A stretch of 64,000 bases of DNA from a virus, in IMG/VR virus record IMGVR_UViG_3300036851_000360, positions 1 to 64,000 of that record. The stretch is one strand, 5' to 3'. Below, in pieces: positions 31,109-47,177 of the stretch; position 1 is the first letter of the stretch; each line of letters starts with the position of its first letter. A program made the translations under genes and the position numbers. Below the pieces are notes generated by a model. The model was not told the DNA's origin. It worked only from the letters and a program-made list of their open reading frames with translations, and did no database searches.

Positions 31109-31111
31109 CCG

Positions 31112-34322: not shown

Positions 34323-34351
34323 CGATCTCCGTCCGCTCGTAGCCTGCGATA

Positions 34352-34537
34352 ATGCCGCACTTCCGCCCCTACCAGGTCATCCCCGGTCACCCCATCACCA
34401 TCACGATCACCGCCGTGGACGGTGGGCGGGCCGAGGTGGTCGGGACGGTAGCCAAGGTGACCGACGTCGCGAGCCCGTCCACTGTGCTGCGGATGGAAGT
34501 CGTCGACGCCCACGTTCGGCCGCTACCAGCGAAGTAG
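34352..34537 (+). CDS. Small hypothetical protein
   Basis: 61-aa beta-rich ORF filling an intergenic gap. Confidence 0.4.
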   Translation: MPHFRPYQVIPGHPITITITAVDGGRAEVVGTVAKVTDVASPSTVLRMEVVDAHVRPLPAK

Positions 34538-34538
34538 G

Positions 34539-34748
34539 TCACCTCTTCGATCCTCCCAGCTTCTCCGCGGCCAGCGCCGCCGAGTACAGGGTGCACGGCG
34601 ACTTCACCTTCCCCGACGAGTCCCCGCCGCTCGGGCACTTCGGGCAGCGCCCATCCGCCCCCGGCTTGTGCTCGGTGAGGATCTTCCTCGTCGTGTCGTG
34701 CCTCAGAATGAACCGCACCAGGTCCCCCGACAGGTCCTGGGCGCTCAC
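34539..34748 (-). CDS. Small Zn-finger-like protein
   Basis: H...CPKC...PC motif; GAGGG RBS before GTG. Confidence 0.55.
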   Translation of the reverse strand: MSAQDLSGDLVRFILRHDTTRKILTEHKPGADGRCPKCPSGGDSSGKVKSPCTLYSAALAAEKLGGSKR

Positions 34749-34836
34749 CCCACCCTCAACATGTAGTGCTGCATTCGTGTGCTCCCCACACTGGTTGTGT
34801 TGGTTCCTGTCATGGTCTGGCCGCATACTGCAAGCC

Positions 34837-35250
34837 ATGGCGGAGACAGCGCAGATACCTGCCTGGGTGGCGGTCACCCCCCGGGCGGTTGTCGACTGCC
34901 ACTGGATCGCCCACCAGGTAGCCGCCGAGGTCGGCAGGGCGTCCGTCCACGGTGAGGTGTGCTCGATCCTCGACTGGGTCACCACAGACCTCCCCGACGA
35001 GGCCGCTGTTCATGCGCGGGTGGTAGGCGACGACACCAGCACTCTCGCGTGGCTCCTCGGGTTCACCCCCGTCCCGCCGATCGAGCTGCCCCGACGCAAC
35101 CCCGACGGCACCGTCGTGACAGTCGAGCAGGTCACGGCTGAGCTGCTGGTCGGGAAGACGGGGATGCCGGAGCAGCGCATCGCCGCCGAGAACCAGGCCC
35201 ACCGCCAGGTCGCCCGGTGGCGGCGTCTCGCGTCCCTGGTGCCGCACTAG
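34837..35250 (+). CDS. Hypothetical protein
   Basis: CATACT -10-like hexamer 7 nt before ATG (leaderless); converges with the transfer module. Confidence 0.6.
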   Translation: MAETAQIPAWVAVTPRAVVDCHWIAHQVAAEVGRASVHGEVCSILDWVTTDLPDEAAVHARVVGDDTSTLAWLLGFTPVPPIELPRRNPDGTVVTVEQVTAELLVGKTGMPEQRIAAENQAHRQVARWRRLASLVPH

Positions 35251-35579
35251 CGCCTCACTCGTGCGGCACCAGCGTCTTCGGCGGGTGCAGGTGTCCACTC
35301 CGCCGGCCGCTGCTCCGGGATCCGCGGCAACCCCGGGAAGTCGCCTTCCCGCGATCTGGCCCACTCGTCCCGGTCCCCGTACGGCGGGTACCGCACCTTC
35401 TGCAGCTCCGTGTACTCGCCGGGCAGTTCGTGGGTGCGGTGGTACTGGCCGCCGGCGTAGTCGTCGTAGGACTGCATCCGGTCCGAGCGGAGCTCGAGTG
35501 CCAACCGGGCGGCGACGACGAGTTCATGGTCGTGGGGGAGCTGCGACAGCTTCAGCCCCAGGTCTGCGGCGTCACTCAT
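35247..35579 (-). CDS. Hypothetical protein coupled to the relaxase
   Basis: ATGA overlap with the relaxase stop. Confidence 0.6.
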   Translation of the reverse strand: MSDAADLGLKLSQLPHDHELVVAARLALELRSDRMQSYDDYAGGQYHRTHELPGEYTELQKVRYPPYGDRDEWARSREGDFPGLPRIPEQRPAEWTPAPAEDAGAARVRR

Positions 35580-38500
35580 GCCCGTTCCCTCACTCGTGCC
35601 TGCTCGTCTGCCATCTCGGGTGCGGCCAGCCACCGGGTTTGCCGTTCGGCCTCTTCCTCCGCCGCCCGCATCTCGTCGGCGCGGTCACGGTCGGTGCGCT
35701 CAAGGAGGGACTCGCGGGCTCGTCTCACCGAGTCCGCCACCGCATCCGCTGCCGGCACTTCCCGCCGGATGCGTGGGTCGTGTTCCGTCGGATCCGCGAT
35801 CGCAACGTCGCGGATGTCCGCCACAGCTGTCTCGAGGGGCTTCCGCGGCACGGGCAGTTCATGGACGTGCTCGCCGACGAGATCTTCCTCGTGGATCGGG
35901 CGGCGTTCATCGTCGGCGACCCGGTCGGCTTCCTCCGCCGCCAACCACTCCGCCATCGTGGTCCGATCCTCTGGGCGGGCCAGGTCAACTTCGCGGCGCG
36001 CCAACTCCGCCTTGGCACGCTCACCCGAATCACGGGTGCCGGCGGTGTGGAGGAACCACGCGGTCCGCTCCTTGTCTGCGACCTCAAGGTTGAGCTTCAA
36101 CTGTTCGAGCTGTGCCGCTTCCTGTTCAGCCTTGACTGCCGCCTCGAGGACCCCCCGCTTCTCGTCGCCTTCGAGGGTTTCGGCGTGCGCCCGCCACAAC
36201 CCGACCTGGTTTCGACGGTCCGCCAACTGCTCGGAGGTGGCCGCGAGTTCGTCCGCGACATAGCGGGGGGCCCACAGCTGTTCCCGTTCCCATGCCGCGG
36301 CCCGGGCGAGAAGCTGCCCGTCGGACTGCATCGCCTCCTCCGGCCCGACATCCGGCAGGCCGAGAGCGTCGTGGGCGGTCGCCCAGATCGCGCGCTTCTC
36401 CGCCAGCCCTGCGGCGGGGGCAGGGCCGAGCGGGTCATGCTCGTCCGTGTACTCGGCGCCCTCCCGGGACGCGGCTGCCCAACCGGCGCGGGACTCCCAC
36501 ACCGCCCGCCGTAGCGGATCCTCCGGGACCGGCCCCAGTGTCTCCATCGCCCAGGGTGGACGTTCCTCCGCCACCCTTGCGCCGAGCTCGTGACGCCGCT
36601 CATCAGCCTTGTCGGCTTGTTTCTCAAGCCAACCGCGCCACACGTCGCTCACCCCGGCGGGGATGAGGTCCCGGTAGGAGGTGATCCGCGGGATCTGTTT
36701 CCCGAGGGTGTTGCGGATGCGGGCGTGCAGCACCTGCGCTGCTCTCTCAGCGCCAGCCAGGGACTTCCCTTCCAGCGCGTCGCGGAGCACGCCCTCGGGG
36801 TTGTGGCCAGAAACCTCCGCGTTGCGGAGGAGTCGCTCCACAGCGCTCATCGCCTGGTCCGCGGCCAGCGCCTCACGTTGTTCAGGGGTGATGACGCCTT
36901 CCGCGGCGAGCCGATCCAGGCGGGTTGAGGTCGCGCCGGCGGTGGCCTCGTTGATCCCAACGAGTAGCCGGTCGACGTTGCGGAAGGTGGACTGCTCGTC
37001 CTCGATGGCCTGCTCGCGCTGGGCGATCGCCCCCCGTTCCTCCTCGGCGTTCTTGAATGAGTCCGCGAGGACAGCCTTTGCGGTGCGACCCTCGACCTCC
37101 TGCGCTTCCCCGACGGGCGCGTCGGAGGCCAGCTGCTTGGTGGTGACCCACGCTGTGTTCGACTCCCGGCCGCGTGTCATCCCCACGTAGGTGCCGGTGA
37201 GGTCGTGCCCGGTGTCGACGGTGCGGCCCTGTGCGGCGTGCAGGGTGGAGGCGTAGGCGAGGGACAGGTGCTTCTCGACGTAGCTGGCGCTCAGAGTTAG
37301 CGCGACCCCCTTGCTGGTCTCCACCCGCAGTGCCCCGTCGGCGAGGAAATGAGTCACCCGGTACGTCTGCCGGTTGATCAACGGGAGAGGGTTACGGCCG
37401 AGGCGCCAACTGTTCTTTCGTGCCTGCACAAGGTCGCCGATCCCGGCGATGTTGCCGTCTTTGCCGAGACGTACACCGCGTTCGGACACCTTCCCCAACC
37501 GGACGAGCTCGGCCCGGAGCTGGGCGTTCACCTGGGCGGCCTGGTCGTTGCTGCGGACCAACAGCAGGGACTTTTTCCCTGCGAGGGTGTCCGCCAGCCA
37601 CGCCTGCCCTGCCTTGTGCTCGGCCTGTTCGGTTGTGCCGCAGCCACGCAACCGGCCGTGCTTGTCGTACTCGTCGAGGGCTGCGACATTCCCTTCACGC
37701 CACAGCAGCGACGCCGTGCGTTCCCACTCCTCCTGGAACCGCCACACCTGCGTCAGCTCGTAGGACCGTGCCGTGCGACGGAGATCAGCGAACACCCCAC
37801 CGGCCTCGACTGAACGCATCTGCCGTGCGTCGCCGACTGGCAGGAGTTTCGCCCCAACCTCCTCGCACCGCTGCACCAGATCGGCCATGTCCCGGGTGGA
37901 TGCCATCCCCGCCTCGTCCACCACGACCAGGTCACCGGCTCGCAGTTGTAGGGAGTCGTCGTTCTCGACCGCGAGGCGCCACCGGTCGAAGTTGAACGAC
38001 TCCACCCCCTCTTCAGCCATGACGTCGGCGGCGTTCTGCGAGGCGGCCAGCCCGAACGTGCGGCGGCCATGTTCGGCCCACGCGCCCGCGATCAGCCCGA
38101 CAGTTGTCGACTTGCCAGTACCGGCGGCAGCGGAGATGGTTTCCACGTAGGCGCCGGAGGTGAGGACGCCGCAGATCGCGGCCTCCTTGTCCGCCCCCAA
38201 CGTCTCGTCCGCCGCCTCGTTGTAGCGGCGGATGAACGCATCCACCTGCGCCTGGCTCAGCTTCGCCGCCCCAGTCCTGACAGCTGCCTGCTCAGCGATC
38301 CGCTCCTCGGCGATCTGCCCGACTGTGGCGAACTGGGCGGAACCGGGACGCTGGAACGCGGACAGATCACCGGCCAACCGGAACTCGGCTGGCAGGCCGT
38401 CAACCGACTCTTTGGCGACAACGACCTTGGCTTCGGCGAGGGCCTTGTCGGCGAGCCGCTCCAACATCGCGGGGATGTCACCGGCGGGGACACCGAGGTT

Positions 38501-39799
38501 CGCGGGGAGCGCACCCGAGATCGCGAAGATCAGATCGGAGCGGGTCCACACGTGCTCGTTTTTCCCGACTTCCCACAACGCCGCCTTGATCACCTGAGAG
38601 GGGGAGACTTCATCCGCCCGCCCTTGCCCCTTCAGCGCGAGGACGTCGTGGGCGACCTGCTCCAACCCGCCCACCATCTTCGTGCGGGCCTCACGCTCCC
38701 ACCGGTCCAACCGCTGTTCCGCGGTCTCCCCGGTGTGCGACTTCCCCTTCCTCGTCAACAGGGTGGCGCGTTCGGCGATGTACTGCCGCTCCAACGGCGA
38801 CACGGACCGGCCGTGCTGCTCCTCGTACTCGCGGATCAACTGCTCCGTCTTCGCGGTGACCGCGTGGGACCGCTTCGAAAACAGGTCCATGAGCTGCTGC
38901 GGCACACCCGCGATCTCGCGGATGATCCCGTCCTTGCGGGCGTCGCGGGTCACAAACCGGACCCCCAACGTGCGGGCGAGCTCGGCCTCCATGACCCGCT
39001 CACCCACCGCGGCGGCAGCCCACTTGTGCAGCGTCAACGCCGCCCCGTCGACCCGGCCCCACTTCCCATCAGCGCGTTCGTGAACGTTCAGGATCGCCTG
39101 GTGCACATGCAGCTGTGGATCCCGCTCCCGGGAGTCGTGCTGCAGGAACTGGGCGACGATGAACCCCTTCTGCTCCATCCAGCGACCCGCACCGGAGGAG
39201 TGGTTCCCAACCCGGGCGTACGCGTTCGCCTCGAGGTAGTCGACACTTGCCGACGCGCCAGCCATCGCTGCGCCCTCAACCGCGCTGAGCATGGCCCGCC
39301 ACGATGCCGCCTCCTGATGACGTCCTGCACCAGCGGCGACGTTCATCGCCCGCTCGAAGGCGACCGCCAGGAGGGTCACGGACTTCGGGACCGAGAAGGT
39401 GGCATCCCAGAACGCCACCGCCTGCCGCGACTCCCGCTCCGCCGCAGCCTGAAGTTCGGCTCGCCGCTCCGGGCCCGCATCGGGCTCCTTCGCGAGCGCC
39501 TCTTTGTAAATCTCGTCCGGTGACCGGTAGCGGCGGTGGGCGGGAGCCAACGCCCGCGCCTCCGCCCACATCTCCCGGTGATGGGTGGCCTCGTCGCGAG
39601 GGTCGAGCAGACGGGCGTAGATCGCCTCCATCAGATCGGAGTTGACCTCGCCCGCCAGCCCGAGAGCCTGGGCGCCCCGCCCATGCCAGCCGCCGGGCGG
39701 TTCACCCGCGGCTACGGCACCCGTGTAGTAGCCCTCCCGCCCGGTCGACACCGGTCCGGTCAGGTACCCCACCGAGTAGCCCTTGGTCACCTTGAACAC
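35576..39799 (-). CDS. mobF: MobF (TrwC-family) conjugative relaxase with RecD-like SF1 helicase
   Basis: GYYTG tyrosines, GGWHGRGAQALGL, DATFSVPKSV, HDSRERDPQLHVH (HUH); helicase motifs AAAGTGKS, VVDEAGM, YASTLHAAQGRTVD. Confidence 0.95.
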   Translation of the reverse strand: MFKVTKGYSVGYLTGPVSTGREGYYTGAVAAGEPPGGWHGRGAQALGLAGEVNSDLMEAIYARLLDPRDEATHHREMWAEARALAPAHRRYRSPDEIYKEALAKEPDAGPERRAELQAAAERESRQAVAFWDATFSVPKSVTLLAVAFERAMNVAAGAGRHQEAASWRAMLSAVEGAAMAGASASVDYLEANAYARVGNHSSGAGRWMEQKGFIVAQFLQHDSRERDPQLHVHQAILNVHERADGKWGRVDGAALTLHKWAAAAVGERVMEAELARTLGVRFVTRDARKDGIIREIAGVPQQLMDLFSKRSHAVTAKTEQLIREYEEQHGRSVSPLERQYIAERATLLTRKGKSHTGETAEQRLDRWEREARTKMVGGLEQVAHDVLALKGQGRADEVSPSQVIKAALWEVGKNEHVWTRSDLIFAISGALPANLGVPAGDIPAMLERLADKALAEAKVVVAKESVDGLPAEFRLAGDLSAFQRPGSAQFATVGQIAEERIAEQAAVRTGAAKLSQAQVDAFIRRYNEAADETLGADKEAAICGVLTSGAYVETISAAAGTGKSTTVGLIAGAWAEHGRRTFGLAASQNAADVMAEEGVESFNFDRWRLAVENDDSLQLRAGDLVVVDEAGMASTRDMADLVQRCEEVGAKLLPVGDARQMRSVEAGGVFADLRRTARSYELTQVWRFQEEWERTASLLWREGNVAALDEYDKHGRLRGCGTTEQAEHKAGQAWLADTLAGKKSLLLVRSNDQAAQVNAQLRAELVRLGKVSERGVRLGKDGNIAGIGDLVQARKNSWRLGRNPLPLINRQTYRVTHFLADGALRVETSKGVALTLSASYVEKHLSLAYASTLHAAQGRTVDTGHDLTGTYVGMTRGRESNTAWVTTKQLASDAPVGEAQEVEGRTAKAVLADSFKNAEEERGAIAQREQAIEDEQSTFRNVDRLLVGINEATAGATSTRLDRLAAEGVITPEQREALAADQAMSAVERLLRNAEVSGHNPEGVLRDALEGKSLAGAERAAQVLHARIRNTLGKQIPRITSYRDLIPAGVSDVWRGWLEKQADKADERRHELGARVAEERPPWAMETLGPVPEDPLRRAVWESRAGWAAASREGAEYTDEHDPLGPAPAAGLAEKRAIWATAHDALGLPDVGPEEAMQSDGQLLARAAAWEREQLWAPRYVADELAATSEQLADRRNQVGLWRAHAETLEGDEKRGVLEAAVKAEQEAAQLEQLKLNLEVADKERTAWFLHTAGTRDSGERAKAELARREVDLARPEDRTTMAEWLAAEEADRVADDERRPIHEEDLVGEHVHELPVPRKPLETAVADIRDVAIADPTEHDPRIRREVPAADAVADSVRRARESLLERTDRDRADEMRAAEEEAERQTRWLAAPEMADEQARVRERA

Positions 39800-39805
39800 T
39801 ACGGT

Positions 39806-40523
39806 TCAGCTCCGCACCCGCGCGTACTGCTGCAGCCGGGCGTTCGGGGTCGCGTCGAACGTCCACGACGCCGGCGTGAGCAGCTCGCACACGTTGGCGA
39901 TCGCCGCCCGGGCGGCCTGCCGCGCCATGTCGGTGCGGTAACCCATCGGGTGGGTTTGCGCCCCCCACGAGTTCGGCACCCCCCACCGCACGTATCCGTT
40001 GTCCATCAGCGGGCCCGCCCGTCGGTGTTGTCCGGGCAGGCGGGCAGCCAAGAGATGACCTGCTCGGCGGTCAGGCCGACCCGCTCAAGGGCAGCGAAAT
40101 CGGCAGCGTCAGGGGTCTCGACGAAGTCGCCATACACGGCATGCCGTTGGATTCGGCCCTTCGCGTCGCCTGCGTCCGCCCACGCCCAGTTGAGTTCCTG
40201 CTCGGCGATCCGCTCGGCCCGCTCCTCGGCGGTGAGTTCGTCGTCAGGGTGGAAGTTCTCGGTCATCGGGCCCGTCCTTCCTCGGCGGGCTGGCCGCGGT
40301 ACTCGATCCACGAGGCCGTGCCGTACGGGTTCTCCGTGATCCAGTTGGCGCTGGCGTTTGCCAGCGCGTCGTCACGGTCGGCGCCGCGGATCCCGTCGTC
40401 GTGGCTGGTGCCGTTCGGCCAGTGCACGGTCACGTCGTGCCAGGGCTGGCCCTGCTGGGCCTGCCGTTCGGCGTAGGCCGCCTCGATCTCGGCCGCGATC
40501 TGCGGATCGGTCAGGTCTGCCAT
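39806..40523 (-). other. Three small coupled hypothetical genes (40523-40263, 40266-40006, 40006-39806)
   Basis: Overlapping stop/start codons; the first two products both end in GRAR*. Confidence 0.6.
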
Positions 40524-40689
40524 GTGGATCTTCCTTCCTGTGTCGTTCACACCGCTGGATTGGCCAATGCATCGGTGTGGCTTCCTTCTTTGAGCTGTTA
40601 TGGGATCTTGGGGACGTGTGGTGATCTTGAGTAGATGGATCTTGTGAGGTGAGTGGATCTAGATAGATAGAGATCGGTTAGAGGTTGTT
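40524..40689. promoter_or_regulatory. AT-rich intergenic region: candidate oriT/promoter
   Basis: Lower GC; GATCTTG at 40604, 40623 and 40638 plus GATCT at 40656; ATTGGCCAAT palindrome at 40559-40568; lies between T4CP and relaxase genes. Confidence 0.5.
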
Positions 40690-41370
40690 CTATGGCCTGC
40701 GGAGCTTGAGTTCTCGGTGCTTGCGTGCGTCCTCGAGCTGCTCGTCGGTAGGCGCCGGCGGGAGGCCGGTGGTGCTCCACGCTTCGGCGACCGCATGGAT
40801 GTGGCCGGCAAGCGGCGCCGCGAGGGGCTCCTTAGCTGCCTGACCTGCTGGTTTGTGGTCCTGAAGGCTGCACGACCCGAGGTGTTTGCGGACCCGCTCG
40901 ACCAGGCGCGGCATGGACTGGTCGTGCCACATGCCCTGCGCTACCGGGTCGTCCTGCGACCCGTACGCCTTCGCGTGGTACCGGCGCAGCCACAGGAGCT
41001 CTTCGATCAGCCAGGGGTGCCAGGCCCAGCAGGAGGGCAGTTCGTTCCCGGGATACCGCAGGTAGACGGCGTTCAGCCACGTCTCGAGGTCGCGCAGACG
41101 CTCGTCAAGTTTCTCGGGGTCTTCACCGACCTGCAGTAGCCACGCCCGTCCGTCGTCCTTCCCTCCTGGCGCGAGGAGGGCGACGAGGCCTTCCTCGAGG
41201 TGCCGGAAGGCCTTCCACATCCCCCGGAGTTCGTCGTCCCACCCGCGTGCGTCGCCCAGTTCCTGCAGCCGGCGGGAGTGCCGGTCGAGCTCCCGCCCGA
41301 TCGTCTGGGCGTCGAGCGGCTGGGTGGGCTCCTCGGGTGGGGGTCCTGCGGGAGGGTCAGTGGGTGGCAT
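40690..41370 (-). CDS. DUF4913-like conjugation-associated protein
   Basis: WL..VY...CWAWHPWLIEELLWL...WH motif; directly downstream of the T4CP. Confidence 0.6.
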   Translation of the reverse strand: MPPTDPPAGPPPEEPTQPLDAQTIGRELDRHSRRLQELGDARGWDDELRGMWKAFRHLEEGLVALLAPGGKDDGRAWLLQVGEDPEKLDERLRDLETWLNAVYLRYPGNELPSCWAWHPWLIEELLWLRRYHAKAYGSQDDPVAQGMWHDQSMPRLVERVRKHLGSCSLQDHKPAGQAAKEPLAAPLAGHIHAVAEAWSTTGLPPAPTDEQLEDARKHRELKLRRP

Positions 41371-43201
41371 TGGTCAGCTCCCGGTCGGGTGCGGCACCCA
41401 CGGGTACAGGTGTCTGTGGGTGGGTGGGTGCTGGGAGGTCGATGGGTGCGGGTGCCGGGAGCGCAACGGGGTGGGTGACCAGGTGGGTGGGAGATGGCCG
41501 GGAGAACACCCGGCGGGCACCCACACCCACGAGGCGGGTGAGAACCGATGGGTGTCGCTTCCACACGGGGATGACCCGCCCGATCACGATGGGCATGTCG
41601 CCCGTGTAGACGATGGCCTTCCACTTCGGGAGGCTCGCCAGTTGTCCCACGGACAGCACAGGCGCTTTGCGCACGGACGTGGAGGTGATGTCGCCGTCGC
41701 CGTTGCGGGTGACGACGGTTTCGTCGCGGTCGCCGGCGAGGTCGGAGAAGGCCTTCAGGCCACCGACGGCTTTGTTGCCGCCGATGTACATGAGCACGTT
41801 GGAGTTGTTGATGAGCCGCTCGGCTCCGGCCTCGCCGTACTTCGCGATCATGTCGGCGTAGGACTGGAACACCGGCATCAGCTGGATGCCGGAGCCGCCG
41901 AAGTCTCCGGACCAGTCGGGCAGCGGGACGGGGCAGACCCGGGCGGCCTCGTCGAGCGGGAACCGGATCGGCGGGTCGAGCCGCCCCCGGCACGCCCCCT
42001 CAAACGACGGCAGCGCTGCGAGACGGCGGGCTTCGCGGGCGATATACCCGGTCAGCGCTTGCAGCAGCGGAGCAGTGTTCGCCTCATGCCTGCCCAACAA
42101 ATACACGGTGCCCTTGCCGCGGATCAGTTCGGCAACGTTGAACGGGGCGGCCCCCTTGGTGGAGGCGGCCGCCGCCGGCGAGTGGAGCCACTGCAGTGCG
42201 GGCAAGATCCCGGTGGTGATGCTCGAGCGGGTGGTCGGGTTCAGGCCGATGAACTGATCGACGGCGGGCCGGAACGACGGGACCGGGGACGCCTGGAGAA
42301 GTTCATGTACCTCATCGCCGATGTGGTCGGGATTCGCGACCCAGCGGAGGATGTCGTGGCAGTCCCGGGTGCCCTCGGACAGGCCGGCGGCGTGGAGGAA
42401 CGCGGCGAACACCCGCCGGGACTGGGCATCCCAGTCCGCCGAGTCTCCGCGTACACCCTCCCGCTCGGGGATCATGTCTGCGGCCCGGTCGATCGCCACC
42501 GTGGGGTCGTCGCACCCGTGGACGGGGTCGAAGCTGATCGTGGAGTCGACTTCACCCACCCAGGCCGGGTTGTACACCCAGATGGGACCCGTCTTCGCCC
42601 GCAGCTCCCGGGTCTGGTCGTAGAGGTCGGTGCGGGTGGAGGTGGTGACTACGGCCCCGGGGGCGTCGATGACGGGGGTTCCGAGGAGGGCGGTCTTGCC
42701 TCGGCGGGGGCCCGCGACGATGAGTACGACGTCTTCGGCCGAAGCCCACACCCGCATCCCGGCCGCCCGACACAGCAGCACACCCAGCTCCCGGGTGGGT
42801 GTGCGCCACCGCTTCACCCACCCGGCATCCCGTAGGTGCGGGCGGACAGCGCGGGCCTTGCGGTGCATCGCCCACCAGGAGGTGCCGCGGGCGACCTGTA
42901 AGGGGGTGGCGACGCCCGAGCGCCGGCGGGCCTTCTCGCCCCACCGGGTGACGGTGCGGGCCGTCCCGCCGCGCCACCACACCACCCCCGCCACGCAGGC
43001 GACGCCTGCAATGGTGAGGACACCGGCGAGGGTGAGAGCCCCATGGCTCATGTACAGCCACGCGGAGACGCCGACACCGCCGCCGATGCCGACCTTGCGG
43101 GAACTGCCGGCCAGACCGCGCTTGAGCTTGCGGATCCAGTCGCCCACGAAGATGGCGGCGGCCACACCTGCGGTGACGAGGACGACGAACTCGGCGGTCA
43201 C
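41357..43201 (-). CDS. Type IV coupling protein (VirD4/TraG/TraD-like)
   Basis: N-terminal TMs; Walker A GPRRGKT; VVTTSTRTD; Walker B PLDEAA; QSYADMIAKYG; GTG start coupled to the upstream stop. Confidence 0.92.
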   Translation of the reverse strand: MTAEFVVLVTAGVAAAIFVGDWIRKLKRGLAGSSRKVGIGGGVGVSAWLYMSHGALTLAGVLTIAGVACVAGVVWWRGGTARTVTRWGEKARRRSGVATPLQVARGTSWWAMHRKARAVRPHLRDAGWVKRWRTPTRELGVLLCRAAGMRVWASAEDVVLIVAGPRRGKTALLGTPVIDAPGAVVTTSTRTDLYDQTRELRAKTGPIWVYNPAWVGEVDSTISFDPVHGCDDPTVAIDRAADMIPEREGVRGDSADWDAQSRRVFAAFLHAAGLSEGTRDCHDILRWVANPDHIGDEVHELLQASPVPSFRPAVDQFIGLNPTTRSSITTGILPALQWLHSPAAAASTKGAAPFNVAELIRGKGTVYLLGRHEANTAPLLQALTGYIAREARRLAALPSFEGACRGRLDPPIRFPLDEAARVCPVPLPDWSGDFGGSGIQLMPVFQSYADMIAKYGEAGAERLINNSNVLMYIGGNKAVGGLKAFSDLAGDRDETVVTRNGDGDITSTSVRKAPVLSVGQLASLPKWKAIVYTGDMPIVIGRVIPVWKRHPSVLTRLVGVGARRVFSRPSPTHLVTHPVALPAPAPIDLPAPTHPQTPVPVGAAPDRELTNATH

Positions 43202-43452
43202 GACCGCGCCCCTGCCCGCTGGCTGTAGGTGTGGCGCAACTCCAGGGACGTCCCGAACGCGCAGATGAGCGCGAAGATCCATGACTGCGGTGTCGCGTAG
43301 ACGAGGACCGCACCCAGCGCGAGCGTGGACGCCCCCATGAACCCGGCGCTGAGGGCGCCTGCCGGGATGCTGATCCAGCTACGGGTGGTCACCCGGGAGA
43401 TGACGGAGAGGCCGACCGACAGAGCGAAGTACGAGAGCAGAAGGCTGATCAT
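43198..43452 (-). CDS. Small polytopic membrane protein
   Basis: Almost entirely hydrophobic 84 aa; coupled on both sides. Confidence 0.65.
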   Translation of the reverse strand: MISLLLSYFALSVGLSVISRVTTRSWISIPAGALSAGFMGASTLALGAVLVYATPQSWIFALICAFGTSLELRHTYSQRAGARS

Positions 43453-44360
43453 GCGGGCTGGTGTCCGTTCACGGAGAGGCTCTTCACGAGCTGCTTGGCG
43501 GTGTGCTCGGTGACGCCGAGCTTCTTCTGGAGGACGACACGACCGGCACCACCGGCGATGAGTTCGCGGGCCTTGTCGAGGTCAATGTCCCGTGGGGGTG
43601 CGACCGGACCTCGTGACGAGGTCTCCTTGCCTCGCGACGAAGTACCATCCGGTGTCGTCGTAGCCCGGGGTGCGGTCTGCCAGCGCAGCGACAGGCCGTT
43701 GTCGTCGACCTGGGAGAGATCGGGAACGACGACGTCCTCAACCCGCTCGAGCGCGGGGACGTCGACCCGGCCAACGGTGTGAGCGTCCTGTCGCCGTGCC
43801 CGCTCGACCCGGTACGACTCCCATGCTTCACGCGGGTCGGTGATGCCCTGGTCGATGGACCAGCGGCGGGCACCCAACGTGCGCCACGGGAAGTGCCGCC
43901 ACCGCTCGGCCGAGAACAGGGCCCCGGTGTCGTCGAGGCGGCCTTCGACGCTCAGCTGAATGTGGTGGGCGCGGCGGGTGTGCAAGCCCCACAGCCAGGG
44001 GCTGGACAGGGAGAACAGGGCGAACATGACCGCTGCCGGGCTGGGTGCCCAGCCGGTGGAGAAGTGGCTGTAGTTGACGGCGGCGGCCACACCTGCGAGG
44101 AGGTAGGACCAGCGCCGATACTTGGCGGCGGTGGCGGTGTCCTTCCGTAGGAGGGCGTCGTGGGCGTGCCACTGCACGTACAGGGAGATGGATTCGAACG
44201 CCGCCGCAGCCCCGCCGGCGATGACCACTGTCAGCGGGAACCAGTCCTGTCGGAACGCGTCGAGCCCGAACTGGAACTGGCCGTAGACGGCGAAGCAGGT
44301 GACGAGGGAGATTGGGGCGACGGTCCGCCAGGTCACGTCGTCGCTACGGCTGGTGTCCAT
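43449..44360 (-). CDS. DUF2637/Spd-like membrane protein with C-terminal HTH
   Basis: Four TMs (AAVNYSHF) then a soluble tail ending GRVVLQKKLGVTEHTAKQL. Confidence 0.6.
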   Translation of the reverse strand: MDTSRSDDVTWRTVAPISLVTCFAVYGQFQFGLDAFRQDWFPLTVVIAGGAAAAFESISLYVQWHAHDALLRKDTATAAKYRRWSYLLAGVAAAVNYSHFSTGWAPSPAAVMFALFSLSSPWLWGLHTRRAHHIQLSVEGRLDDTGALFSAERWRHFPWRTLGARRWSIDQGITDPREAWESYRVERARRQDAHTVGRVDVPALERVEDVVVPDLSQVDDNGLSLRWQTAPRATTTPDGTSSRGKETSSRGPVAPPRDIDLDKARELIAGGAGRVVLQKKLGVTEHTAKQLVKSLSVNGHQPA

Positions 44361-44653
44361 CAGGACCGGCCGTCCCTACCCCGGCCGACCCGCCGCGGGA
44401 TGATGAACGCCAGGTTGACCAGGGCGATCACGAACCCCAGCAGGCCCACGGTGAACACGAACTGGGCGGCCCCGGTGGTCAGCCACAGCTCGCGCATCGG
44501 AATGCCAACCACCACGGCGGCGACAGGTGCGCCGGGGAACAGCCACAGCCCGGACTCCTTGAAGTCGGAGTGCCGTGGGGGCAGGTCGAGCCGAGGCAGC
44601 GGCTGGGTGGGCTGCTCTGAGCGGGGGGCAGCCTCGTGGGCTGGGGCGCTCAT
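44360..44653 (-). CDS. Small two-TM membrane protein
   Basis: Two hydrophobic segments and a basic tail; coupled. Confidence 0.6.
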   Translation of the reverse strand: MSAPAHEAAPRSEQPTQPLPRLDLPPRHSDFKESGLWLFPGAPVAAVVVGIPMRELWLTTGAAQFVFTVGLLGFVIALVNLAFIIPRRVGRGRDGRS

Positions 44654-45597
44654 CGGGCCCACCCCTCGACCACGTCGGCGGCCTCGGCCTCCCACGTGGC
44701 GTCCAACCCGTCTCGGGCGAACTGCGAGAGGCCCCCGTCGTAGTGCCGCTCGACACCGCGCAGGATCTCCGTGTCGGACATCTCCAGGATGTCCTCGGGG
44801 TTTTCCTTCCAGCTGCAGTCGAGGACCCAGTCGCGGGCGGCCTGAACGAACTCGGGGTGGCTGCTCATCGGGCCCGCCCCTCGGCGAACCGGCCGGTGGT
44901 GAACACGGCGGCCTGCGCGTCCCACGCCTGGTGGGGGTGTTCGACCTGGGCGTGTTCTCGGATCGTGGCCTGATTGCGCTGGCCTGCGATGGCCGCCAGG
45001 CGGTCGTAAAACTGGCTGAGGGTCGCGAAGTACGGGCGGCCGAGGTCGGCTCGGCTACGGTCGGCATGCCAGGCATCGCCGCGGGTGCCGAGGTCGCGCC
45101 ACAGGTCGGTGAGGGACCTGCTGTCCGGCGTGGTGCCGGTATCGGGTGGGCTGTCAGACTGCACGTGCCTGTTCCTTCCTGGGAGGTTGGTTCGGGTAGG
45201 GCCCCGGCGGGAGTTGCAGCTCCGTGCCGGGGCCGTCTTCACCGGGCGGCCGCATCCTCAGGTGCTGGTGCGACGGACTTCCAAATGCTGGCCAGCTGCT
45301 GGGCGTCACCCCGCTGATACGCGGCCTCCGCGGAGGCGAACAGTTCGTCCGCGCACGTGAACCGGTGCGACCCGGCAACCGCCTTGATCCGCGCGAGGAG
45401 GGTTTCGAGGTCGGTCACCGGGTCACCGCCGTGGGGCGGGCCAGGAACACCGTCACGTCACCGCTGTTGCGGAGCTGCGTCAGCAACGTCAGCAGGCACA
45501 CCCAGCAGATCTGGCCGGCGCCGACCTCGTCGACGGTTGGGATGAGGGCACGGTCCCGGCCGGCACGTTTACCGCAGGTGGAGCAGGTGTTCGCCAT
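44650..45597 (-). other. Four small genes at the head of the transfer operon (45597-45415 CxxC/CxxC; 45418-45239; 45164-44865; 44868-44650)
   Basis: RBSs and overlapping stop/starts; a hairpin at 45201-45236 separates the two pairs. Confidence 0.55.
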
Positions 45598-45704
45598 GCC
45601 AGGTCTCCTCACTGGGTCAACCGATCGTGTTGCCTACCCTCCCAGATCTGTGCAATCTTTGCAAGGTGTTCGTCCTCTGTGTGGTGTGTGGGAGGGTTGG
45701 GTGG

Positions 45705-46307
45705 ATGACAGATCCACGCCAACTACTCAGCAGCGTCCAGGCCGGCAAAGAGCTAGGCCTAGCTGCGAGCACGCTGTGGCGCTGGCACCACAGCGGGAAA
45801 ATTCGAGCCGACTTCGTGACACCCGGCAAGCACCTGCGCTGGGACGTCGACCGGCTCAGGCGCTTCCTCGCCAACCCCGACATGGAGGAACTGAACGTGC
45901 CCGAGCCGGCCTCGAACCCAGAGCACCCGTCTGTCGTCGCCGCGATCGTCACCTCACATCTCGGCGTCCTCGCGGGACGGCGCAACGACGGCAGGCCGCC
46001 ATGGACGTTCATCGCCGGCGAGATCGAACCTGGCGAGTCGCAGATAGACGCCGCCGTGCGAGAGGTTAAAGAGGAAACGGGGCTGCTTGTCCGGGCCGGG
46101 CATCACGAGATCGGCCGACGGGTGCACCCGAAGACCCGCCGCACGATGATCTACCTGGCGTGCACCCCGACGCATGGCACCGACGTGTTCGTCGGCGACG
46201 AGGACGAGCTCGCCGAGGTGCGGTGGCTGTCGCTCGAGGAGGCGGACGAGCTGCTGCCGGGGATGTTCGAGCCGGTCCGCGAGCACCTCGGCCGGGTCAT
46301 CTCCTGA
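45705..46307 (+). CDS. BldC/Xis-like HTH fused to a Nudix hydrolase
   Basis: ELGLAASTLWRW...TPGKHLRWD (MerR/Xis-like HTH); Nudix box GEIEPGESQIDAAVREVKEETG. Confidence 0.88.
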   Translation: MTDPRQLLSSVQAGKELGLAASTLWRWHHSGKIRADFVTPGKHLRWDVDRLRRFLANPDMEELNVPEPASNPEHPSVVAAIVTSHLGVLAGRRNDGRPPWTFIAGEIEPGESQIDAAVREVKEETGLLVRAGHHEIGRRVHPKTRRTMIYLACTPTHGTDVFVGDEDELAEVRWLSLEEADELLPGMFEPVREHLGRVIS

Positions 46308-46354
46308 CCGGACCGCAGGCTGTCATACGACTGTCCAAGTTGACTAAGCGCAGG

Positions 46355-46543
46355 TCAGCCGCGCGGGTGTCGCGATCCCTGCCGTAGGTGCACCGGCTCG
46401 GCGATGGAACAGCCGATCGGTTCGTGTGCGTACTTCGGCAGCTCGGCATGTAGCCAGCCGACGTTCTCCAGCCACTCGATGGGGCGCCGGCAGTTGGCGC
46501 AGGCGTAGGGCGGCCCGTCGCAATCCGGACACGGCTGCATCAT
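46355..46543 (-). CDS. Small Cys-rich protein
   Basis: CPDC...CANC...WLH...C; AAGGA upstream. Confidence 0.5.
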   Translation of the reverse strand: MMQPCPDCDGPPYACANCRRPIEWLENVGWLHAELPKYAHEPIGCSIAEPVHLRQGSRHPRG

Positions 46544-46580
46544 TTGGAATCTCGATCCTTCACATGAGGCTGGTCAGGCG

Positions 46581-46751
46581 TTATCGGACATCCGTGCTCG
46601 CGTCGCGGCCGACCTCGCGCTCCAGGGCGCGAGTGACGAGCGCGAGCACGGTCTCACCGTTCGCCGCCGCGGCGGCCCGCACGCGATTGACCAGGTCGCG
46701 GTGCAGCCGCCAGGTCACGGCCCGTTTGTCGGGGTGCGGTCGGTTGGCCAT
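46581..46751 (-). CDS. Ribbon-helix-helix (Arc/CopG-like) protein, 56 aa
   Basis: GAGGAG RBS; MANRPHPDKRAVTWRLHRDLVNRVRAAAAANGETVLALVTRALEREV. Confidence 0.7.
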   Translation of the reverse strand: MANRPHPDKRAVTWRLHRDLVNRVRAAAAANGETVLALVTRALEREVGRDASTDVR

Positions 46752-46770
46752 GGATTACTCCTCGGGGGAC

Positions 46771-46803
46771 GAGGCGGACCCCACCAGAGTGGGGTCCGCC
46801 TCT
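46771..46803 (-). terminator. Hairpin between the cassette genes
   Basis: gaggcggacccca / tggggtccgcctc perfect 13-bp stem. Confidence 0.65.
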
Positions 46804-46808
46804 TGCGG

Positions 46809-47033
46809 TCAGAGCACCGTGACCCGGTGCCCGCGGGCGAGGGTGCGAACCTCGCTCGAATCCAGGGCGTAGTCCACGAACCGCACGCCCTGGCGGACGG
46901 CCGTGACCTCCAGGCCGACCGGCTGAAAGCCGTTGCGCGTGCGGCGGTACTCGCGCACCACCATGCCCTCCAGTAGGTCCTCAACCGCCACGTCGGCGGT
47001 CGGGTTGGCGACCTGCGGGTCGAGAGCGAACAT
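46809..47033 (-). CDS. Small hypothetical protein (beta-rich, 74 aa)
   Basis: GAGGAG RBS; upstream TTGCCA-18-TATGTT promoter with a ccgccc/gggcgg palindrome in the spacer. Confidence 0.6.
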   Translation of the reverse strand: MFALDPQVANPTADVAVEDLLEGMVVREYRRTRNGFQPVGLEVTAVRQGVRFVDYALDSSEVRTLARGHRVTVL

Positions 47034-47177
47034 GGCCCCTCCTCGGGGTCCGGGCGGCCCCCGGCTGGGGCCGCACTGGGCGGGTGTCCGTCTCGATGAG
47101 AGAAACATATCCGCCCAGGTAGGGCGGTGGCAAGCTACCCGCTGCAAGTTCACTCGGTTGGGGTAGCAAGCCACCCG

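Follow-up and report, generated by a model that had tools for sequence, protein, structure and literature searches.

The 64-kb window analyzed here is part of a 72,180-bp viral contig (G0). Its central region carries a putative DNA-transfer (Dtr) module, whose order on the minus strand, in the direction of transcription, is a DUF2637-like membrane protein, a type IV coupling protein (T4CP), the protein f2, a candidate oriT, small ORFs and a MOBF relaxase-helicase, with f3 on the opposite strand (Table 1). Genes were called with our own GC3-based caller, and their start codons are approximate.

Table 1. Features of the window, in order of position
Feature	Position	Strand	Basis or remark
Late region	1-27230	+	TerS to large tail proteins; starts at conserved cos-like site
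TerS	16-417	+	Late region
TerL	407-2158	+	Late region
Portal	2925-4490	+	Late region
Protease	4405-5451	+	Late region
Major capsid	6482-7696	+	Late region
Tape measure	10730-14359	+	Late region; followed by large tail proteins up to 27230
Secreted coiled-coil protein	29068-29766		Just before the sortase gene
Sortase	29763-30410	+	Pfam Sortase, E=2.4e-16
Possible endolysin (lead only)	31307-32467	+	Weak similarity to VldE/Extensin-like viral endolysins
f3, conserved small protein	34834-35250	+	C-terminal ~138 aa of ORF 34291-35250; divergent from relaxase
128-aa ORF	35247-35633	-	Just downstream of relaxase
MOBF relaxase-helicase, 1407 aa	35576-39799	-	Uninterrupted single ORF; Pfam TrwC + AAA_30
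Three small ORFs (39806-40051, 40006-40311, 40263-40550)	39806-40550	-	Between candidate oriT and relaxase
Candidate oriT core	40533-40595	-	Conserved element, invariant CACACC..GCAT..ATC..GG
AT-rich spacer	40596-40689	-	Cluster of (C/T)AAGATC direct repeats spaced by 15-19 nt; GC 0.42-0.50
f2, 226 aa, distant DUF4913-like protein	40690-41370	-	Always between T4CP and relaxase
T4CP (VirD4/TraG/TraD type), 641 aa	41357-43282	-	Pfam
DUF2637-like protein, 303 aa	43449-44360	-	Hydrophobic N-terminal half
Small ORFs	44360-45612	-	Not conserved in related phages
HTH-NUDIX protein	45627-46307	+	NUDIX E=5.5e-19, HTH_17 E=0.0012
Tyrosine recombinase remnant (last 60 aa)	47178-47360	-	PF00589 positions 130-169
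Large serine integrase, only intact integrase of record	47468-48955	+	Resolvase, Recombinase, Zn_ribbon_recom domains
PrimPol-D5_N-DUF5906 replication protein, 912 aa	58678-61416	+	Pfam; right arm

Transfer genes and the candidate oriT

The original prediction, made from the sequence before any database search, had named an intact MobF relaxase-helicase and a VirD4-like coupling protein, and both identifications hold. The relaxase matches TrwC (E=8.5e-47, residues 11-372) and AAA_30 (E=6.3e-50, residues 534-719), and its HxDSRxxDPQLHVH block aligns to TrwC chains (phmmer: 1omh, E=5.7e-11; 3l57, E=1.6e-7; 8a1b, E=1.9e-7). Across 18 sequences, Y12, Y24, Y25, H221, H231, H233, G560, G562 and K563 are invariant, covering the N-terminal Tyr residues, the His triad and Walker A. 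The T4CP matches TraG-D_C (E=1.9e-20) and T4SS-DNA_transf (E=2.2e-14) and has two N-terminal hydrophobic helices (TM segments) and a GPRRGKT Walker A motif; its Walker A/B residues G195, K196, D444 and E445 are the same in all 17 sequences compared. Judged by sequence, the catalytic equipment of both proteins is intact.

No gene of the module is better conserved than the relaxase, which is under purifying selection, with a dN/dS (0.135 between G0 and its relative G1; 0.27-0.31 in other pairs) similar to that of capsid genes (capsid 0.30, portal 0.24). Its ORF is unbroken, at 1400-1407 aa, in G0, G1, G6 and G7; in a prophage of Pseudonocardia zijingensis it shows one reading-frame change near codon 390-399, representing either decay or a sequencing error. 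Evolution is faster in the T4CP (dN/dS 0.38-0.53), f2 and f3 (0.33-0.79 for the three) than in the relaxase.

The f2 family has invariant W98, C114, W115 and H118 residues. Its earlier description as DUF4913-like is partly borne out: the nearest Atlas clusters (score 0.90) carry DUF4913 on 13-21% of their members, but the window protein itself has no Pfam match and DUF4913 is matched by 1 of 46 family members (E=0.004). When f3 is present, it always lies on the strand opposite to the relaxase (same strand in 0/34), ~2.6 kb downstream, and it is 76% identical in G1. Neither f3 nor the neighboring 128-aa ORF (79% identical in G1) has a Pfam or PHROG match. The small ORFs between candidate oriT and relaxase, for which no convincing Pfam match was obtained, may encode relaxosome accessory proteins; an 81-aa product has homologues in G1 (69% identity) and G7 (51%), and a 95-aa product has one in G1 (84% identity over 32 aa).

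The several membrane proteins initially proposed reduce to two supported ones, the T4CP and the 303-aa DUF2637-like protein. The latter shares its C-terminal ~100 aa with the DUF2637 proteins encoded ahead of the T4CP in bacterial elements (residues 196-300 against 11 family members: 31-58% identity, BLASTP). Its family representative matches Pfam DUF2637 (E=2.4e-17), which the window protein itself does not; the latter matches phrog_10376 (E=2.8e-7) and has a homologue in the P. zijingensis prophage (48% identity over 313 aa). The small ORFs that follow have no Pfam match and no homologue in G1, G6, G7 or G10; the HTH-NUDIX protein is 70% identical in G1.

The AT-rich gap noted at the outset spans ~130 bp (~40551-40689), with a GC content of 0.42-0.56 in 50-nt windows versus 0.66-0.71 for the window overall. 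The conserved element in it is the only nhmmer match in the 72-kb record, recurs in G1, G6, G7 and G10, and has 15 invariant columns in an alignment of 23 sequences. Out of 80 bacterial genome loci with related relaxases, 38 carry it shortly upstream of the relaxase gene, once per locus, on the relaxase strand in 37 and at most 300 nt from the called relaxase start in 31. The G0 flanks can pair as a 7-bp inverted repeat, with a DNA hairpin of -10 kcal/mol (z=-2.04; 9 of 200 shuffles fold as well), and the consensus hairpin of the 23 sequences is weak (-0.25 kcal/mol). What had been called an oriT is presented here as a candidate: a conserved, relaxase-linked element does lie in the gap, and it could equally be a promoter or operator. 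In the adjoining spacer, CAAGATC has three exact copies within 40604-40644 (14 in the window against 4.79 expected); the repeats, which G1 keeps and G6 and G7 keep in part, may be accessory-protein binding sites or a promoter.

The phage frame of the record

Phage modules flank the transfer genes on both sides, as predicted. The late region matches phrog_9 (E=3.3e-71), phrog_104 (E=4.2e-106), phrog_193, phrog_283 and phrog_305, along with Terminase_4 (E=2.6e-4), and the right arm encodes RusA and HNH proteins in addition to the replication protein. Because the phage has this PrimPol-D5_N-DUF5906 replicase of its own, the relaxase would not be needed for phage replication. The sortase, with homologues in G6 (54%), G7 (47%) and the module-less relative G2 (36%), is regarded as flanking context. 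The lysis genes proposed for this side are reduced to a lead: no Pfam endolysin domain is present at E<=0.01, and ORF 31307-32467 shows similarity to Extensin-like_C (E=0.0076, below cut-off), phrog_32486 (E=1.2e-5) and, as its nearest Atlas clusters, viral VldE/CW_7 “putative endolysin” groups (score 0.78-0.85).

G0 and G2 have homologous starts (AGCAC...) and homologous ends (...CCTGGnC), and an AGCA start also occurs in 6 of 25 other TerL-related contig starts inspected. Contigs running through the terminus site have ~10 extra nt between the two ends, which fits a trimmed cohesive end, and HNH at the right end with TerS at the left fits cos packaging. Both G0 ends, lying at a conserved terminase-proximal site common to independent contigs, are probably cos ends, an argument drawn from contig ends and not from virion sequencing; since they probably are, the module would be present in virion-form DNA. 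On contiguity, which was to be confirmed, a second assembler yielded a single contig of 39 kb that spans 30001-50000 at an even depth of ~29, with 0 differences and 0 gaps; it likely comes from the same sample and so is not independent data. No host genes lie between late genes, module, integrase and early genes.

The serine integrase is the sole PF00239 match in the record, and each phage record has one intact integrase; the module has none of its own. As anticipated, no intact second integrase is present: the recombinase remnant is a C-terminal fragment, 70% identical to the C-terminus of a 331-aa recombinase adjoining the relaxase in viral contig L098 and only 31% identical to the G1 integrase. 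The reported lack of VirB4 and FtsK-type genes is also upheld, with no match to VirB4 (PF12846, PF03135) or FtsK/SpoIIIE (PF01580) in the whole 72-kb record or in any of five phage records (PF03135 covered in G0 and G1 only). Each of five Pseudonocardia genomes has a single AAA_10 match far from the relaxase locus, and any helper channel is therefore hypothetical. The window is best read as the greater part of a complete temperate siphophage, packaged by cos ends, of a Pseudonocardia-like soil actinomycete. The module is integral to it and single-copy, a point on which the second assembly, independent contigs, cos-like ends and the att pair of an isolate agree.

Recurrence in phages and bacterial relatives

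A search for other phages combining TerL, MobF and T4CP, suggested by the original prediction, showed that the module lies behind the tail genes in at least seven further phage settings, namely five or six viral or metagenome contigs with three different head modules, and one prophage. The order of tail genes, module, and integrase or early genes is kept in independent contigs from other metagenomes, with the module on the strand opposite to the tail genes. For instance, the G1 relaxase is 88% identical to that of G0, with a different TerL, portal and capsid; identities are 66% in G6, 63% in G7 and 47% in G9, where the gene is cut by the contig end and a third head type is found. L098 and L212 are fragments with module and tail homologues. 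The membrane T4CP and the DUF2637-like protein adjoin the relaxase in G0, G1, G6 and G10. The close relative G2 (TerL 82%) does not carry the module, which is therefore dispensable for the phage cycle. The P. zijingensis prophage, found in a cultured isolate, 91 kb long and of the same architecture, is bounded by 51-bp tRNA-Tyr repeats; this att core has only two copies in 140 kb, and the pair encloses the module along with the integrase and the early and late genes.

In a FastTree phylogeny of 87 relaxases, a 21-row clade (SH-like 97) unites all 7 phage-context rows with 14 metagenome proteins of unknown context, and the remaining 66 genome-locus rows all fall outside it. Nested among the relaxases of Pseudonocardiaceae integrative elements, the phage-borne ones make up a single clade that spans 47-94% identity and three head types.

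Across 86 sources, the core comprises T4CP in 58, f2 in 52, relaxase in 81 and f3 in 35. Like the phage module, the int-MobF-T4CP-DUF2637 elements of Pseudonocardiaceae and several actinomycete plasmids have an ordered set of DUF2637, T4CP, a ~205-226-aa protein, MOBF relaxase and a small divergent gene; the plasmids are those of Streptomyces tendae (NZ_CP043961.1, 35 kb) and Streptomyces sp. HNM0561 (NZ_CP089537.1), and Amycolatopsis pA387 (EF375609.1). The window relaxase is 45-55% identical to those of Pseudonocardia elements and 33-36% to those of the plasmids. Bacterial elements come with a tyrosine integrase, PrimPol/DUF3987 and SSB of their own, or with a plasmid ParA, whereas the phage module has neither set and lies within a phage genome in virion order. 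Homologues of phage structural genes are missing within +-10 kb from 76 of the 80 genome loci, and another 3 show a single marginal match. In PLSDB, two of these plasmids are typed as mobilizable and the third, NZ_CP089537.1, as non-mobilizable; our literature search found neither a transfer test for these plasmids nor experiments on this cassette in any actinomycete.

A proposed transfer route, its alternatives and known systems

We propose that the phage genome can be moved by conjugation through a domesticated mobilisation module captured long ago, an account that is probably, if narrowly, correct. The central “lysogeny” region would be the site of this Dtr module, derived from the integrative elements and plasmids common in Pseudonocardiaceae and other mycelial actinomycetes. 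It would have been captured once, losing its own integrase and replication genes, and then kept by purifying selection as head, tail and integrase modules were swapped around it. In a lysogen, the relaxase would nick the excised circle or the prophage at the candidate oriT and stay on the 5' end, its helicase would unwind the nicked strand, and the T4CP would pass that strand to a mating channel not encoded by the phage, provided by a co-resident element or by a minimal inter-hyphal route of T4CP and DUF2637 protein. The recipient would re-circularise the DNA, and the phage integrase would integrate it. If so, the phage has two transmission routes, virions and contact-dependent transfer. The mobilisable phage first envisaged thus stands as regards an integral module with a conserved candidate oriT, its mechanism staying a proposal.

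The module might instead work without moving the phage, which we consider unlikely. The relaxase-helicase could nick the phage circle and start rolling-circle concatemer synthesis for cos packaging; a relaxase and oriT of the same specificity as those of resident integrative elements could mobilise, compete or interfere with them; or host DNA adjoining the prophage could undergo Hfr-like transfer. Relaxases are HUH nucleases, kin of rolling-circle initiators, and the 40533-40595 element belongs to the same family as that of chromosomal elements, making cross-recognition conceivable; the stronger conservation of the relaxase relative to the T4CP and the missing channel also fit. Against these points, the phage encodes a replicase of its own, G2 is packaged although it lacks the module, bacterial elements pair the same relaxase with separate PrimPol/DUF3987 replication genes, and the T4CP and DUF2637-like protein, which have no replication role, are retained beside the relaxase.

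It is improbable that the module is selfish or neutral cargo, an integrative mobilisable element (IME) that rides in capsids without offering the phage a route of transfer. In G0 and G1 it lacks both an integrase and an att site of its own, the isolate has no internal att copy, one relaxase clade spans the three head types with a dN/dS as low as that of capsid genes and uninterrupted ORFs, and a useless extra 11 kb in a size-limited capsid should soon be lost. Observations that suggest cargo are a core clearly derived from integrative elements, the absence from G2, the adjoining recombinase remnant and the broken relaxase frame of the isolate. The hitch-hiking IME captured from the flank, offered originally as an alternative, was right about origin, the core being common to integrative elements and small plasmids, but wrong about recency and autonomy, because the capture is old and the module, which lacks an integrase of its own, has diversified along with the phages. 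An artefact, whether a chimeric assembly or a prophage and a separate neighboring element cut out as one viral record, is very improbable. The record is a linear metagenome contig of 93% estimated completeness, and the only sequencing run containing it is probably its own source; nevertheless, the second assembly, the same junctions in contigs of other metagenomes, ends at a conserved terminus and not at arbitrary points, and the lack of intervening host genes largely refute this reading.

Among known proteins, TrwC (R388) and TraI (F, pKM101) have the same relaxase-domain fold family and His-triad block followed by a helicase domain. Only residues 184-314 of the window relaxase align significantly with them, and it differs in its actinomycete host and a long C-terminal region (~720-1407) without a Pfam domain. 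In a search of 50,697 phage records, the only named ones to match the relaxase were those of the “putative relaxase” of Mycobacterium phage Adler, which align at 24% identity with residues 359-932 only, a stretch that covers the helicase and leaves out the TrwC domain; the T4CP had no match among phage records.

Streptococcal IMEs (PMC5357655, PMC5704250) likewise combine a relaxase with a coupling protein and lack a mating pore, a helper channel being presumed; an IME has its own integration/excision module, whereas the phage module has none and its carrier is the phage. Actinobacterial T4SS-type ICEs (PMC3429521) share the TrwC-like MOBF relaxase, VirD4-like T4CP and integrase, often at tRNA genes, which the tRNA-Tyr site of the P. 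zijingensis prophage parallels; those ICEs are defined by the co-occurrence of VirB4-like proteins, of which none was found in the phage records. Phage-plasmids such as P1, N15 and SSU5 are also phage hybrids with typical plasmid functions, combining phage genes with plasmid replication and partition, and conjugation genes are rare in them (PMC12282955, PMC10123127, PMC10879196). Unlike them, the phage described here integrates (serine integrase; tRNA-Tyr prophage in a relative) and carries transfer functions instead. [quoted passage not shown]

Genome organisation and probable packaged form

The IMG/VR record (72,180 bp, of which bases 1-64000 make up the window) has a linear classification, and CheckV estimates it to be 93% complete. 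The GC content of the window is about 68%, and a tRNA search of it found none; since high GC yields many spurious ORFs, genes were called by codon-position GC, and their start codons are approximate. The gene order of the window is the virion order of a temperate siphophage. Ordered terminase, portal, protease, capsid, tape measure and tail genes identify a tailed phage, and the serine integrase, the Cro/CI-type HTH protein and the integration of a related prophage at tRNA-Tyr identify a temperate one.

Features of the window in map order, with supporting profile matches
Feature	Position	Strand	Remarks
Conserved cos-like site	1-60; 72121-72180 of the record
TerS	16-417	+	Terminase_4 E=2.6e-4
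TerL		+	phrog_9 E=3.3e-71
Portal		+	phrog_104 E=4.2e-106
Protease, major capsid, tape measure, then very large tail proteins	left 27 kb	+
Major capsid protein	6482-7696	+	404 aa
Two very large tail ORFs	16721-24904	+	1421 and 1305 aa
LamG-like protein, collagen-repeat protein, sortase, then possible endolysin	after the tail genes		endolysin a lead
Sortase and upstream secreted protein	29068-30410
Candidate endolysin ORF	31307-32467
f3	34834-35250	+	small protein, divergent from the relaxase
MOBF relaxase-helicase	35576-39799	-	1407 aa; TrwC + AAA_30
Conserved element (profile hit)	40533-40595
Gap with candidate oriT	40551-40689		CAAGATC copies within 40604-40644
f2	40690-41370	-	226 aa; between relaxase and T4CP
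Type IV coupling protein (T4CP)	41357-43282	-	641 aa; TraG-D_C PF12696 E=1.9e-20; T4SS-DNA_transf PF02534 E=2.2e-14
303-aa protein	upstream of T4CP		C-terminal 100 aa match DUF2637 proteins that precede T4CP in bacterial elements
HTH-NUDIX gene	module	+
Tyrosine-recombinase remnant	47178-47360		60 aa; right of module
Large serine integrase	47468-48955		intact; right of module
Cro/CI-type HTH protein	49955-50263	+	right arm
PrimPol-D5_N-DUF5906 replicase	right arm	+	912 aa
RusA, Phage_VG64 (mycobacteriophage-type protein), HNH endonuclease	right arm, close to right end	+

As to a possible lysis cassette, no endolysin domain exceeded the Pfam cut-off, and the candidate ORF has lead-level similarity to viral endolysins. 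The sortase is intact (Pfam E=2.4e-16), with a TLxTC-like motif, LVTCGG, and is overlapped at its start codon by the gene for a secreted acidic coiled-coil protein whose C-terminus lacks a membrane anchor. Sortase homologues occur in two related contigs with the module, G6 (54%) and G7 (47%), and also in the right arm of the module-less relative G2 (36%), which makes the sortase a trait of this phage group rather than of the module. The major capsid protein has a C-terminal extension of ~100 aa (residues 287-394) that matches "major tail protein / tail sheath" PHROGs and is probably an Ig-like decoration domain; the G2 capsid protein (310 aa) lacks it. The two very large tail ORFs abut in one frame, the stop of the first directly preceding the start of the second, and neither has a PHROG hit at E<=1e-5.

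Contiguity of the module with its phage surroundings, on which the original prediction turned, was upheld by a second assembly. In the Logan assembly of the sole sequencing run with the sequence, one contig of 39,250 bp spans 30001-50000 unbroken, with 0 differences, 0 gaps and a flat depth of ~29; the run is probably the source sample, and it is the assembly that is independent, not the data. Read "joints" considered as deletion variants were rejected: all sides are only 20-21 letters long, and they were taken as chance matches from other organisms.

The contig ends point to virion DNA. Our record (G0) and G2 (61,161 bp, from another metagenome, TerL 82% identical) both begin AGCAC... about 400 nt ahead of TerS/TerL, and their right ends are homologous (...CCTGGnC). 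The same AGCA start is found in 6 of the 25 other TerL-related contig starts examined (one being G2), and several more start a few nucleotides inside. In four contigs that run through the terminus, ~10 nt separates the "right end" and "left end" motifs, and in G6 the right-arm genes run straight into TerS, which closes the circular map. Shared starts and ends with a ~10-nt gap are the pattern expected of cos-ended virion DNA after overhang trimming, not of a prophage or a circle. Though indirect, these terminal sequences are good evidence that what is packaged is the whole 72-kb molecule with its module. The conserved cos-like site recurs at the starts of the loci L003, L007, L030, L033, L038 and L057, and could serve as a marker of complete genomes when this phage group is sought in metagenomes.

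Relaxase, coupling protein and candidate oriT

The module runs from 34.8 to 46.3 kb, chiefly on the minus strand, and includes small ORFs besides the genes named above. The relaxase matches the TrwC domain PF08751 with E=8.5e-47 and 160.5 bits (cut-off 25) over residues 11-372, covering profile positions 6-284 of 286. Its metal-binding histidine triad (motif III), QHDSRERDPQLHVH, aligns with the matching TrwC block (1omh, E=5.7e-11), and H221, H231 and H233 are invariant in an alignment of 18 relaxases. Y12, Y24 and Y25, candidates for the catalytic tyrosine, are likewise invariant in these 18 sequences, and the YY pair aligns with that of TrwC in a weak stretch of 7.3 bits. Fused to this domain is a RecD-like helicase (AAA_30 E=6.3e-50, AAA_19 E=9.9e-11) whose Walker A residues G560, G562 and K563 are invariant in the same 18 sequences. 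By relaxase domain, histidine triad and fused helicase, the protein is assigned to the MOBF (TrwC/TraI) family, and it is a single ORF of 1400-1407 aa in G0, G6, G7 and a fourth contig, G1.

The coupling protein combines a membrane anchor with a nucleotide-binding domain that carries Walker A and B motifs: hydrophobic segments lie at residues 27-45 and 83-101 of its N-terminal part, the Walker A sequence is GPRRGKT, and G195, K196, D444 and E445 are invariant in 17 sequences. The protein f2 is a distant candidate for membership of DUF4913 (PF16259): the window protein has no hit, one of 46 family members matches the profile (E=0.004), and the structural comparison gave an Atlas score of 0.90 and TM values of 0.42-0.57. 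A NUDIX gene, as found in the module, is a feature of some actinomycete integrative conjugative elements (AICEs).

The gap between the relaxase and f2 has a GC content of 0.42-0.56 and carries (C/T)AAGATC repeats spaced 15-19 nt apart. Exact copies of CAAGATC number three within the gap and 14 in the window, against 4.79 expected. The core of the gap is kept in G1, G6 and G7 though the adjoining genes are only 45-67% identical. A profile built from 13 regex-found copies, which as seeds match by construction, gives one hit each in G0, G1, G6, G7 and the related contig G10, and a single hit per locus in 38 of the 80 genome loci compared; 37 of these 38 are on the relaxase strand, and 31 are <=300 nt from the called relaxase start. 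Across 23 aligned copies, 15 columns are invariant (CACACC, GCAT, ATC, GG). The consensus fold is weak (-0.25 kcal/mol, with a compensatory change in 2 of 6 pairs), and for the G0 copy the folding energy is -10 kcal/mol (z=-2.04), a value matched by 9 of 200 shuffles; it is conservation of sequence and position, rather than a hairpin or covariation, that makes the case for a candidate oriT. A single-copy, strand-specific, relaxase-linked element of this kind is oriT-like, but the same traits would be expected of a promoter or operator that serves the relaxase operon. In MOBF plasmids, transfer starts away from the relaxase gene; by analogy, the T4CP, the integrase and the early side of the phage would enter the recipient first.

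Related phages and the history of the module

The search for other phages with the module, proposed with the original prediction, was fruitful. Relatives were gathered by searching viral contigs with the relaxase and T4CP and by comparing whole records. G1 (69,184 bp) is reverse-collinear with G0 across a stretch that reaches from the tail genes at 15.3 kb, by way of the module, to the early genes at 55.5 kb, and its relaxase is 88% identical; its TerL (phrog_9 E=1.2e-90), portal, HK97 capsid and S78 protease differ in type from those of G0, and its integrase is an intact tyrosine integrase of 380 aa. G6 (55,092 bp) is collinear with the entire late region of G0 and continues through sortase, f3, relaxase (66%), f2, T4CP (55%) and the DUF2637-like gene. 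Similarly, G7 (41,273 bp) has late genes, sortase, f3, relaxase (63%) and f2, where the contig ends. G9 (52,116 bp) has a third head type and a relaxase (47%) truncated by the contig end. Two shorter loci also belong here: L098 (19.8 kb), with a relaxase (50%), a tyrosine recombinase of 331 aa and homologues of a tail protein and the tape measure, and L212 (5.5 kb), in which the relaxase (48%) adjoins a G9-type tail protein. G2 has heads and some tail genes in common with G0 and neither relaxase nor T4CP. In a metagenome scan, among the matches listed, which are mostly 30-50% relatives, 2 of 80 loci have phage structural homologues (L227, which is G9, and L212).

Three further contigs were not counted as members: G015, with TrwC and T4CP and only a weak TerL-like hit; G016, with its T4CP at the contig end; and G017 (IMGVR_UViG_3300032783_000063), with no TrwC. 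The last is a closed 101-kb phage (101,305 bp, direct terminal repeats) with HK97 capsid, portal and TerL, and carries a T4CP-like gene (30%) at ~52.7-54.1 kb.

A relative is also present in a cultured isolate, Pseudonocardia zijingensis CGMCC 4.1545 (L138; contig NZ_JBHSKO010000001.1). Its order is G9-type heads, TerL with a LAGLIDADG insertion, tail genes, f3, relaxase (55%), the conserved element, f2, T4CP (48-51%) and the DUF2637-like gene. A 51-bp direct repeat occurs in two perfect copies, one at 157,731-157,781, at the 3' end of a tRNA-Tyr gene with the tyrosine integrase adjoining, and the other at 248,708-248,758, where host-type genes follow. No third copy is found in the 140 kb examined, so that integrase, early genes, late genes and module belong to a single integrated element of ~91 kb; a tandem [quoted passage not shown] was rejected on the same count. 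The module lies at the prophage end opposite the integrase, as expected if attP is between module and integrase in the virion map. The isolate relaxase has one frame change between codons ~389 and 399 (L138:11161-11194), between the relaxase domain and the remainder, which may reflect a genuine split, decay or an error of sequencing. The large terminase of this prophage (1126 aa; L189:1679-5059, contig 181,679-185,059) has LAGLIDADG/Hom_end at residues ~516-583, before the Terminase_6N match, an insertion that looks intein-like.

The nearest named relaxases are Pseudonocardia "MobF family relaxase" proteins, at about 50% identity. Neighbour clustering covered 86 sources (80 genome loci, four viral loci, G0 and G1) and returned a core of relaxase (81), T4CP (58), f2 (52) and f3 on the opposite strand (35); further families include the DUF2637 protein (23), a tyrosine integrase (14), SSB, PrimPol and DUF3987. 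Phage structural homologues within +-10 kb are absent from 76 of the 80 genome loci, amount to one marginal hit in three and to four in one (L138), by a small query set that distant phage genes could escape. The cassette is the sole annotated transfer-related gene set of a 35-kb circular Streptomyces tendae plasmid (NZ_CP043961.1), and similar arrangements are on two further small plasmids, by PLSDB gene tables that are incomplete. In addition to the MobF-T4CP-DUF2637 cassette, NZ_CP043961.1 and another Streptomyces plasmid, NZ_CP089537.1, have in common a block that encodes a DNA cytosine methyltransferase, a protein with an ASCH domain and some small ORFs; it may be an anti-restriction set of the leading region.

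In a FastTree phylogeny of 87 relaxases (SH-like support, no bootstrap; loci with a relaxase ORF <1100 aa or uncalled left out), a clade of 21 rows (SH-like 97) holds all 7 phage-context rows, 14 metagenome proteins of 60-94% identity placed by sequence alone, and 0 of the 66 other genome-locus rows. The clade is nested among Pseudonocardiaceae sequences. The simplest history is a single capture by a phage and long persistence thereafter, during which head, tail and integrase modules were exchanged. The recombinase remnant of G0 is 70% identical to the L098 recombinase and only 31% to the G1 integrase, so integrase exchange followed the capture. The idea that the G0 serine integrase, on cutting into a second element, brought the module with it was rejected, since the module predates the integrase swap. 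Between G0 and G1 the relaxase is 88% identical and the T4CP only 59%, which suggests gene exchange within the module.

Pairwise NG86 dN/dS values, rough figures because dS is near saturation in distant pairs, are 0.135 for the relaxase between G0 and G1 and 0.27-0.31 in the other five pairs. For comparison, capsid and portal give 0.30 and 0.24 between G0 and G6, and a tail protein 0.40; the ranges are 0.38-0.53 for T4CP, 0.33-0.75 for f2 and 0.38-0.79 for f3. The data describe a whole lineage of integrative, apparently cos-packaging phages in which selection maintains a relaxase, a coupling protein and a probable oriT.

Possible function and relation to known mobile elements

Phages and conjugative elements are treated as separate gene-flow routes. 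A search of 50,697 phage records with the relaxase gave two records of Mycobacterium phage Adler, 24% identical over the helicase part, two fragments that lack annotation, and nothing else; neither a T4CP match nor a near-DNA match was found. The literature searched describes no phage lineage that combines MOBF, T4CP and oriT; it yielded nothing relevant on DUF2637, pA387 or phage, relaxase and Pseudonocardia together, and, as far as titles and the opening of abstracts tell, no such module in papers on actinobacteriophages and relaxases. According to surveys, conjugation functions are rare exceptions among phage-plasmids (PMC10123127, PMC10879196; review PMC12282955), and the paper on the "conjugative prophage" Phi1207.3 names no relaxase (PMC4260502).

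The original prediction, of a relaxase, a coupling protein and a candidate oriT inside a phage, describes a real arrangement, now on firmer ground than the first reading could give it: the module is old and conserved and lies in apparently virion-form DNA. The second assembly, the contig ends and the recurrence in relatives make an artefact very improbable. What the module does we infer from its parts. The reading to which we give moderate credence is that these DNA-processing and coupling parts would mobilise the phage genome for conjugative transfer. We favour it because the parts are intact, conserved and kept with membrane partners, because they have no role in the replication system that the phage already has, and because the module adjoins the integrase, the region where actinophages tend to carry prophage-expressed genes. 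The main weakness of conjugative mobilisation is the missing channel. As the first reading of the sequence had it, no VirB4- or FtsK-type gene is present: PF12846 (VirB4-type) and PF01580 (FtsK/SpoIIIE) gave 0 matches in five phage records (G0 and four relatives), and PF03135 (VirB4-type) gave 0 in G0 and G1, so the coupling protein has no VirB4-type ATPase as partner in the record. In each of five Pseudonocardia genomes the single AAA_10 match lies far from the relaxase locus, and the near-identical scores of these matches suggest a housekeeping gene. The five genomes also have 8-10 FtsK-like genes each; no FtsK-like translocase is known to work with a relaxase.

Either a helper channel was not recognised here, or the cassette is a minimal system by itself. 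The latter would make DUF2637-T4CP-f2-oriT-MOBF a self-sufficient, VirB4-less single-strand conjugation system of mycelial actinomycetes, adopted by a temperate phage lineage; no other transfer-related genes are annotated on three 30-35-kb plasmids that carry the cassette, which also dominates Pseudonocardia integrative elements. We regard this stronger claim as rather doubtful. A different function, as a replication start or in interplay with resident elements, is unlikely, and selfish cargo is quite improbable.

If the module is active in conjugative mobilisation, such phages could enter receptor-less hosts and spread from lysogens without lysis, and host-range predictions from tail genes would be blurred. 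If it were also self-sufficient, spread would be bimodal, by virions to distant cells and by conjugative DNA between touching hyphae, with the donor not killed and the phage receptor not needed, and a conjugative phage of this sort would add a new class to the hybrid mobile elements. The result further highlights a widespread VirB4-less MobF-T4CP-DUF2637 cassette of actinomycetes, and the cultured P. zijingensis strain makes the question testable, although its relaxase frame is apparently broken in the deposited assembly.

Compared with known systems, the module resembles an IME in having a relaxase, a T4CP and a candidate oriT and no mating pore, and its core comes from integrative elements. 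To this extent the hitch-hiking IME that had been proposed as an alternative stands; it fails as an autonomous element, which has its own integrase/excisionase and att sites. Here, in agreement with the claim that an intact second integrase is lacking, the module itself has no more than the recombinase remnant and shares the one intact integrase with the phage, and the isolate prophage has no third att copy. T4SS-type ICEs of Actinobacteria are defined with a VirB4-like component alongside relaxase, T4CP and integrase (PMC3429521), and VirB4 is absent here. AICEs and Streptomyces-type conjugation use an FtsK/SpoIIIE-type Tra translocase, which is absent as well. A phage-plasmid has plasmid replication and partition functions and an extrachromosomal prophage, whereas this phage has an integrase, its relative is integrated, and no Par or Rep family was found among the proteins scanned, which take in part of the small ORFs. 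The record is best classed as a combination of kinds already known, a temperate phage and an IME-type mobilisation module.
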